A stretch of 64,000 nt of DNA from Plasmodiophora brassicae (taxonomy: Eukaryota). Position numbers and translations under genes: made by a program. The stretch covers positions 62,001 through 126,000 of the forward strand of contig CP145415.1 of assembly GCA_036867785.1 (NCBI GenBank), given 5' to 3'. The notes beneath the pieces are model-generated. The model did not search any database and was not told where the DNA came from. It saw only the letters and a list, made by a program, of their open reading frames with translations. Below are positions 52,776 through 53,939 of the stretch, in pieces (within the stretch, counting starts at the first letter, position 1; each line of letters starts with the position of its first letter).

Positions 52776-53939
52776 TGTGAGGACTGTCCGGAATAAACCG
52801 AGAACCCCGCGACGGACTTCGCCAGTCCGTCAAAGCGTTCGTTGCATCAGCTTGCCTGATCGTGACATTTTGACGGACTACCTATCCCACCACCCTCCTG
52901 TCGATCCCGCCTCGGCATCTCCTGCAGAACGTCAAGGCCTCGGTGGTACCTGGTCGAAGTCCCAGAGTACGTGTCCCGCCGTGCTGTATGCCTCTCAGGC
53001 CACCGGTGTTCCCCTGACCGCTTGCTGTCTCTTCCCGTCCGTCCGTGCCGATCTCGCCTCGGCATCCCCCGCAGAACGTCAAGGCCTCGGTCGTACCTGG
53101 TCCAAGTCCCAGAGTGCGTGTCCCGCCGTGCTGTATGCCTCTCAGGCCACCGGTGTTCCCCTGACCGCTTGCTGTCTCTTCCCGTCCGTCCGTGCCGATC
53201 TCGCCTCGGCATCCCCCGCAGAACGTCAAGGCCTCGGTCGTACCTGGTCCAAGTCCCAGAGTGCGTGTCCCGCCGTGCTGTATGCCTCTCAGGCCACCGG
53301 TGTTCCCCTGACCGCTTGCTGTCTCTTCCCGTCCGTCCGTGCCGATCTCGCCTCGGCATCCCCCGCAGAACGTCAAGGCCTCGGTCGTACCTGGTCCAAG
53401 TCCCAGAGTGCGTGTCCCGCCGTGCTGTATGCCTCTCAGGCCACCGGTGTTCCCCTGACCGCTTGCTGTCTCTACCCGTCCGTCCGTCCGCCAGTGTCGA
53501 TCCCGCCTCGGCATCTCCTGCACAACGTCAAGGCCTCGGTTGCGACGTGCTGTCACTAACCAAACCTGTTCGTCCGTCTGCCCGCCCGCCCGTCTCTCCG
53601 TCCGTCTGCTAATCCGTCCGTCTGCCCGTTCGTCCGTCTGTCCGTCCGTCTGCCCGTTCGTCCGTCTGTCCGTCCGTCTGCCCGCCCGTCTGCCTGCTCA
53701 TCCGCCTGTCCGTTCGTCTGTCCGTCCGTCTGCCCGCCCGTCTGCCTGCTCATCCGCCTGTCCGTTCGTCTGCGACCCATCAGAGGCCATCCGTCTGCCC
53801 TTCTATCCCGGACCCGTCAGAGGCCCATCGCTAGAAGGGGACTATTATGTGAGGACTGTCCGGAATAAACCGAGAACCCCGCGACGGACTTCGCCAGTCC
53901 GTCAAAGCGTTCGTTGCATCAGCTTGCCTGATCGTGACA
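52776..53939 (+). mobile_element. Small non-autonomous LTR retrotransposon (TRIM-like), 92-bp identical LTRs
   Basis: LTRs 52776-52867 and 53848-53939 (TG...CA), TSD CATTC, purine tract AGAAGGGGA before the 3' LTR. Confidence 0.95.
52897..53540. repeat. 147-bp tandem repeat, about 4.3 copies, followed by a degenerate (CCGT)n tract at about 53565-53800
   Basis: GCCTCGGCATC recurs at 52909, 53056, 53203, 53350 and 53505. Confidence 0.93.

Follow-up and report, generated by a model that had tools for sequence, protein, structure and literature searches.

The DNA analysed here, a stretch of 64,000 nucleotides from Plasmodiophora brassicae hereafter called the window, contains at positions 52776-53939 an LTR retrotransposon enclosed by two identical long terminal repeats (LTRs; 52776-52867 and 53848-53939) of 92 bp each and of the TG...CA type, flanked on both sides by CATTC as a target site duplication (TSD) of 5 bp. 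According to the first-pass annotation of this DNA, the insertion was recent and non-coding. The identity of the two LTRs and the perfect TSD agree with the first of these claims, and the second is borne out by the interior, which gave no blastn or tblastn match to the Gag and Pol of the candidate helper family B described below or to five autonomous references. The interior, on which that annotation was silent, consists of an array of 147-bp units and a CCGT-type microsatellite (Table 1). Its four internal frames were rejected as genes, since they contain no credible Pfam family and only two zero-stretch matches arising from repeat translation, and an Rfam search returned a single match at chance level (E 0.53). 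Ahead of the 3′ LTR occurs a polypurine tract (PPT), with a purine run (53833-53841) similar to that of family B.

The element is inserted in a PIF/Harbinger-like DNA transposon delimited by 15-bp terminal inverted repeats (TIRs) at 50937-50951 and 54502-54516, the transposase of which (50997-52406, + strand) matches the Pfam family Plant_tran with an E value of 1.5e-83. It interrupts the second ORF of this transposon, located on the opposite strand and displaying only a weak Myb/SANT match (E 0.026, below the cut-off). No empty paralogue of the insertion site is available because the flank is single-copy in the genome; two of four sequencing runs compared with the region had no cover of the left flank, which does not bear on polymorphism of the insertion either way. 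Elsewhere in the window, the regions 21301-30024 and 41065-46992 contain segmental duplications of up to 3.7 kb with 85-96% identity and ankyrin-repeat frames.

Table 1. Coordinates of the element, of its constituent parts and of the transposon that harbours it, given as positions of the window.
Feature	Position	Strand	Remarks
PIF/Harbinger-like DNA transposon, host of the insertion	50937..54516	not assigned	TIRs and transposase
TSD, left copy	52771..52775	+	5 bp
5′ LTR	52776..52867	+	92 bp, TG...CA, identical to 3′ LTR
U3	52776..52823	+	limit to R-U5 placed from the primer position
AATAAA	52792..52797	+	26 nt before the putative start
U3 arm	52811..52818	+	copy of the PBS core, can form a hairpin with the self-primer
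R-U5	52824..52867	+	only 44 nt; limit to U3 placed from the primer position
Putative self-primer	52824..52834	+	first 11 nt of the RNA if the start is at A52824
U5 stem	52841..52866	+	predicted to close at the LTR end and to stack on the primer:PBS helix
Primer-binding site (PBS)	52869..52879	+	complement of the element's own LTR rather than of a tRNA end
Tandem array	52902..53540	+	147-bp unit, 4.3 copies
Degenerate CCGT/CTGC microsatellite region	53571..53773	+	
Polypurine tract and short spacer	53833..53847	+	ahead of the 3′ LTR; resembles that of family B
3′ LTR	53848..53939	+	identical to 5′ LTR
TSD, right copy	53940..53944	+	5 bp

Throughout the genome, which amounts to 25.3 Mb distributed over 20 contigs, 16 5′ ends made of an LTR followed by a PBS were found for the family of the window element, named family A. 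Fourteen belong to complete copies of 1164-5516 bp, all with LTRs identical to those of the window copy and 13 of them with a perfect 5-bp TSD, and the family is for this reason considered very young; the other two correspond to an interrupted copy and to a diverged variant whose 5′ LTR is damaged. The differences in length mainly reflect the number of array units, which ranges from about 4 to more than 30 in copies sharing identical LTRs; a word marking the unit occurs 5 to 34 times per copy. It is this internal array that brings the copies to such sizes. Among the matches listed (150 of 158), the 147-bp array occurs only inside family A. The designation as a miniature, TRIM-like element, proposed from the window copy, applies only loosely: the LTRs are short and the interior is non-coding, but with complete copies of 1.2-5.5 kb, family A is TRIM-like rather than a classical TRIM. 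The 5.5-kb copy L031 was considered as an autonomous partner and rejected, its long frames being translations of the 147-bp array. Among the other copies, L037 (contig C11, ~610.3 kb) possesses two tandem 5′ LTRs separated by three T within one TSD, and at L032 (C17, 596.3-600.0 kb) one copy, with a TSD of its own, is nested in the first array unit of another, ~190 bp away from an oppositely oriented copy of family B. In contigs of the runs X1, X2 and X3, LTR ends lead into flanks outside the 3′ flanks listed for the genome, hinting at insertion polymorphism between samples.

Directly past the 5′ LTR, TTTGACGGACT (52869-52879) is the exact reverse complement, over 11 bp, of the LTR segment 52824-52834, as had been noticed at first reading, and a G-U pair between 52835 and 52868 lengthens the helix to 12 bp in the RNA. 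When complements to the word beginning 0-5 nt past the LTR were sought in dinucleotide shuffles of the LTR, none of 3000 reached 11 nt and five of 3000 reached 10 nt. Self-priming elements have been recognized by a complement of at least 10 bp between LTR and PBS, beginning 0-5 bp past the LTR (PMC6317226), and the 11 bp found here carry this signature, in keeping with the Tf1-style self-priming site that had been proposed. The 56-nt hairpin 52824-52879 has a predicted energy of -23 kcal/mol (z -3.75), and none of 200 shuffles was as stable. In equilibrium folding, the pair probability of primer and PBS amounts to 0.989-1.000 for all nine start points placed from 52776 to 52826; as the helix arises with each of them, the start cannot be located by folding alone. 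The predicted folds of family A and of four sister families with differing U5 sequences contain a U5 stem that closes at the LTR end. In the family A fold, the bases past the PBS are unpaired and no leader duplex is drawn by RNAfold, a program which cannot draw pseudoknots; by eye, seven of eight nucleotides of the family B leader can pair with R-U5, whereas the family A leader cannot.

All 11 LTR variants have an AATAAA hexamer 23-27 nt upstream of the primer; the hexamer is invariant in the eight aligned families and subfamilies, as is the CAGT at the primer start in all families, and the pattern AATAAA-N20-30-primer yields 146 genome matches versus 0 for a control. The hexamer would occupy a TATA-like position in the 5′ LTR and might act as poly(A) signal in the 3′ LTR; AATAAA is taken by us to be a TATA-like box and CAGT an initiator, and the two lend indirect support to the transcript start near 52824 that had been supposed at first reading. 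Contigs of four of the 24 listed runs, of uncertain RNA status, were compared with 52740-53040 and displayed no pile-up of starts or ends and no clear poly(A) joint, which speaks neither for nor against this start.

Nine further genome matches, common to family A only in the 3′ part of the LTR, define family B. Seven of these nine copies have both LTRs within 10 kb and measure 5536-5539 bp, with identical 87-bp LTRs and TSDs, and an uninterrupted pol frame of 1473 codons occurs in five of the seven, the other two being frameshifted. According to Pfam, the Gag contains a CCHC knuckle and the Pol comprises protease (PR), reverse transcriptase (RT), RNase H, integrase (IN), SH3 and chromodomain, which is the gypsy order with a C-terminal chromodomain. 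A G-GGA-AAT heptamer in the gag frame lies just ahead of the gag stop, and we infer that pol is expressed by a -1 frameshift. A database protein labelled Plasmodiophora brassicae matches the Pol region at 100% identity. An RT-RNase H tree, comprising 37 rows, places B and its sister families in a clade of 23 rows (support 98/98) which also holds chromovirus proteins of Ustilago, Berkeleyomyces, fish and amphibians, with Lolium (a grass) and algae outside. Family B is thus likely to belong to the Tf1/sushi group, a membership that is likely rather than proven because the tree includes no named Tf1/sushi reference; a PDB sequence search gave the Ty3 RT as best match, and no Tf1 entry among the matches.

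The search for an autonomous partner with the same LTR and PBS, recommended by the first-pass annotation, leads to this 5.5-kb family: A and B are identical over the 79 nt from 52802 to 52880, which encompass the U3 arm, R, U5 and the PBS, differ in the rest of U3 and directly past the PBS, and are alike again at the PPT. Family B is therefore the likely helper of family A within the same genome, as judged from these common ends. The window contains another candidate at 9932-15987, a young chromodomain-bearing Ty3/gypsy element whose two 281-bp LTRs are identical. It was rejected as helper, its LTR being unrelated and its RT, only 26% identical to that of B, belonging to another clade.

Sister families with 74-83% identity to B were identified by an RT search, for which 34 loci were fetched. 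Nineteen have usable TSD-defined ends (13 close copies, L082 and five distant ones), and the others, with no clean LTR pair or a spurious one, were excluded from the counts. A complement to the LTR of at least 9 nt directly past the LTR occurs in 12 of the 13 close copies, the thirteenth showing a point change in the PBS, and in none of the five distant gypsy copies (0-6 nt). Across eight aligned families and subfamilies, 79 of 80 primer:PBS cells are paired, and two of the ten pairs have changed on both sides, from C-G to G-C and from C-G to U-A. These are the compensatory changes among families that had been suggested as a check. Two of 500 shuffles scored as high and slid registers pair at 10-49%, and the covariation comprises only two independent substitution events among related families. 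It points to the LTR, and not a host RNA, as the partner of the PBS. The same geometry of primer and PBS is found in five families with differing U5 sequences. The last PBS base, opposite the first A of the primer, is T or C among D and E copies while the LTR stays A, which could reflect ordinary mutation, start-site wobble or cap copying.

Two other groups of elements display a similar complementarity. L082 (519-730; C13, ~999.7 kb) represents an intermediate to distant gypsy family, with an RT 35-40% identical to that of B, and carries a 17-nt LTR/PBS complement located ~100 nt before the LTR end, as a separate candidate for self-priming. L094-L098 (contigs C8, C12, C7 and C5) form a second non-autonomous family of 2.6-3.0 kb, related to family C and with the self-priming geometry; four of the five copies display gag and protease similarity without RT, in the manner of TR-GAG elements, and the TSD is perfect in four of the five.

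Rearranged copies of family D bear on the behaviour of the two motifs. In L068 (1392-1730; C7, ~1135.8 kb), LTR and PBS are followed by 79 nt of inverted U3 beginning exactly at the primer; L077 (2969-3230; C12, ~20.2 kb) mirrors this arrangement, contains the whole of U3 and lies inside one TSD; and L104 (C11, ~1032.1 kb) exhibits the same joint between PBS and inverted LTR as L068 and L077. L077 and L104 may have one common origin. These fold-back copies resemble products of a snap-back during reverse transcription. Such joints would arise if plus-strand strong-stop DNA stopped at the PBS and then folded back on the start of its own R, and host template switching at the inverted repeat could produce them as well. 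The joints show that the primer and PBS motifs have paired as DNA in vivo, which holds for a sister family and not for A itself.

The LTR segment complementary to the PBS had also been described as able to pair alternatively in a hairpin within the LTR. The hairpin exists, as 8 bp between 52811-52818 and 52824-52831, but the folds predict no competition between it and the PBS at the 5′ end, where the pair probability of the U3 arm stays at or below 0.011 for the nine start points in equilibrium folding; a function as an off-switch of the 5′ end is, on this value, not supported. The arm appears nevertheless to be under selection, since its 7-8 nt, present in 10 of 11 LTR variants, change together with the primer (GACGGAC, GACCGAC, AACCGAC). 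Since the PBS prevails over the hairpin at the 5′ end, the hairpin more likely acts at the 3′ end of the RNA. In the 3′ LTR, which no PBS follows, an extended hairpin is predicted just behind AAUAAA (z -2.45, one of 200 shuffles being as good), and its likely role, on these folds, would be to mask the second primer copy and/or to form a bridge to a poly(A) site farther downstream. A strict need for the arm is contradicted to some extent by the occurrence in the genome of a family A variant whose U3 arm has an additional G; the LTR assembled in run X2 is of this form.

From the data taken together, it is proposed with good confidence that family A consists of young, non-autonomous LTR retrotransposons and that an autonomous Ty3/gypsy chromovirus of the Tf1/sushi type in the same genome, namely family B, mobilises them in trans; self-priming of the Tf1 type, considered by itself, is held with slightly greater confidence still. 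Pol II would start at A52824 or close to it, a position suggested by AATAAA at about -30 and by the initiator-like CA+1GT, and the first ~11 nt of the RNA would fold onto the PBS beside the U5 stem. The RT/RNase H of the helper would then cut off this 5′ piece and extend it as minus-strand primer, as in Tf1; the PPT would prime the plus strand, and the helper integrase would insert family A with a 5-bp TSD. The U3 arm would act in the 3′ LTR copy of the RNA, where the hairpin can form with no PBS following. The use of a helper by family A is deduced from the common ends.

A more tentative proposal, which we regard as possible and somewhat doubtful, is that one motif of 10-11 nt exists in two states within these LTRs of 87-146 bp, acting as primer at the 5′ end and being masked in a hairpin at the 3′ end. 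The 5′ motif would serve as self-primer in a two-duplex fold devoid of the third duplex of Tf1, and the 3′ U3 arm would capture the second copy of the motif, hiding it from the PBS. By looping out ~40 nt, the hairpin could let the single AATAAA place poly(A) cleavage farther downstream, and this distant poly(A) site would leave an R overlap for strand transfer once the first 11 nt are spent. In this scheme, the family D fold-backs would represent fossils of plus-strand strong-stop DNA that terminated at the PBS.

Other explanations of the LTR/PBS complementarity have been weighed. The helix, which forms irrespective of a start that folding does not fix, might be a structural hairpin of a longer 5′ leader, invaded by a host RNA (tRNA fragment or small RNA) as primer, with B still helping A. 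Priming by half-tRNAs does exist in other lineages (PMC6317226), and the tRNA test covered exact 11-mers. Nonetheless, the PBS lacks a TGG start, and the 11-mer has 80 exact matches in the genome, not one of which falls in any of the 63 tRNA genes found (63 scored out of 457 candidates), so that the match to a tRNA envisaged in the first-pass annotation as a counter-test did not materialise. Six matches inspected outside known copies comprised four B-related LTRs and two chance occurrences. Moreover, the PBS varies between families in step with the LTR, a behaviour that a conserved host primer would forbid, and in most families the pairing extends no farther than the invariant A of CAGT. A host-RNA primer is accordingly unlikely.

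Still less probable is that the likeness of U3 arm, primer and PBS is kept by copying errors or by template switching at an inverted repeat, family A having merely inherited the ends of B. Fold-back rearrangements do happen at this inverted repeat, the extra-G arm variant of family A occurs in the genome and in the assembly of run X2, and the PBS may be re-copied from the primer in a self-primed cycle, in which case covariation of primer and PBS needs no selection. Such copying, however, presupposes self-priming; A and B are identical over exactly the 79-nt block yet differ across most of U3 and past the PBS, and the geometry is the same in five families with differing U5. It is equally improbable that a sister family among C-F mobilises family A instead of, or besides, B. 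The PPT region of family A resembles that of C as well as that of B and, the primer being supplied in cis, any related RT might act, but the U5 end and the 79-nt block are common to A and B only, and the primer, PBS and U5 of C-F differ from those of A. Mobilisation by B of an element primed by its own RNA remains the preferred reading.

If this reading is true, tRNA-independent priming of the Tf1 type extends to Rhizaria, and a passenger devoid of proteins rides with only ~80 common nucleotides, which would delimit the cis signal at its minimum. With their very small size and natural compensatory variants, the LTRs offer a compact test case of how primer, R overlap and poly(A) site can be fitted into 44 nt. 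PBS annotation based on tRNA sites alone would miss or mislabel such elements, and the young, length-variable family A could mark insertions between clubroot isolates. The gain is incremental, since the mechanism of self-priming is already known. A literature search of limited coverage brought up no account of non-autonomous elements that prime themselves, nor of self-priming in Plasmodiophora; self-priming is nowhere mentioned in PMC13570524 and PMC4717578 (0 occurrences), and the available text of the clubroot pangenome preprint (10.64898/2026.10.14.759018) treats Gypsy and Copia only in bulk.

With respect to known elements, the literature reports self-priming as established for Tf1 and predicted for the Tf1/sushi group, the plant Tcn1 and the copia TAR elements (PMC6317226, PMC4600332, PMC5341516, bioRxiv 2022.12.06.519325), and describes it as a trait of the fungal/vertebrate chromovirus group (PMC6317226; bioRxiv 2022.12.06.519325, section 28). 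The LTR/PBS complementarity of family A is of the kind by which self-priming was predicted for the TAR lineage of Ty1/copia (Houba, Osr-1), from which the family is set apart by a helper with gypsy domain order, hence of another superfamily. Family A resembles TRIMs in its short LTRs, PBS, PPT, non-coding interior, 5-bp TSD and putative autonomous partner with common ends (PMC4717578). By definition, TRIMs are shorter than 1000 bp, with repeats of 100-250 bp and a tRNA-complementary PBS (PMC6934838), although examples of 1172-1449 bp are on record (PMC4717578). Against these values, the 14 complete copies of family A are too long and their 92-bp LTRs too short, the shortest copies being borderline, and the PBS is self-complementary with no TGG start.

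The closest known systems are Tf1/Tf2 of Schizosaccharomyces pombe and the Tf1/sushi group, which includes Tj1, Tosmo1-3, Tcry1, MAGGY, skippy, sushi-ichi and the plant Tcn1 clade. In section 28 of bioRxiv 2022.12.06.519325, the group is characterised by a pretzel of three duplexes, -1 frameshifting in the non-yeast members and a divergence of U3 with conserved R-U5; judging from the sequence, all features of that section save the third duplex are matched here. Like the described members of the group, family A possesses a PBS complementary to its own LTR, no tRNA site and a 5-bp TSD; like those outside fission yeast, the helper B displays a chromodomain, a CCHC Gag and a predicted -1 frameshift; and, as between Tf1 and Tf2 and among Tosmo1-3, U3 diverges between A and B while R-U5-PBS stays constant (bioRxiv 2022.12.06.519325; PMC4600332; PMC6317226). 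Unlike Tf1/sushi elements, family A resides in a rhizarian host and contains a conserved extra copy of the PBS core in U3, the window copy encodes nothing, and the third pretzel duplex of Tf1 is not evident in the family A fold drawn by RNAfold without pseudoknots. The LTRs of A and B measure 87-92 bp, with only 44 nt for R and U5, versus 392-395 bp in Tosmo. Family A is thus best regarded as a modest variant of Tf1/sushi biology, settled in a rhizarian host.
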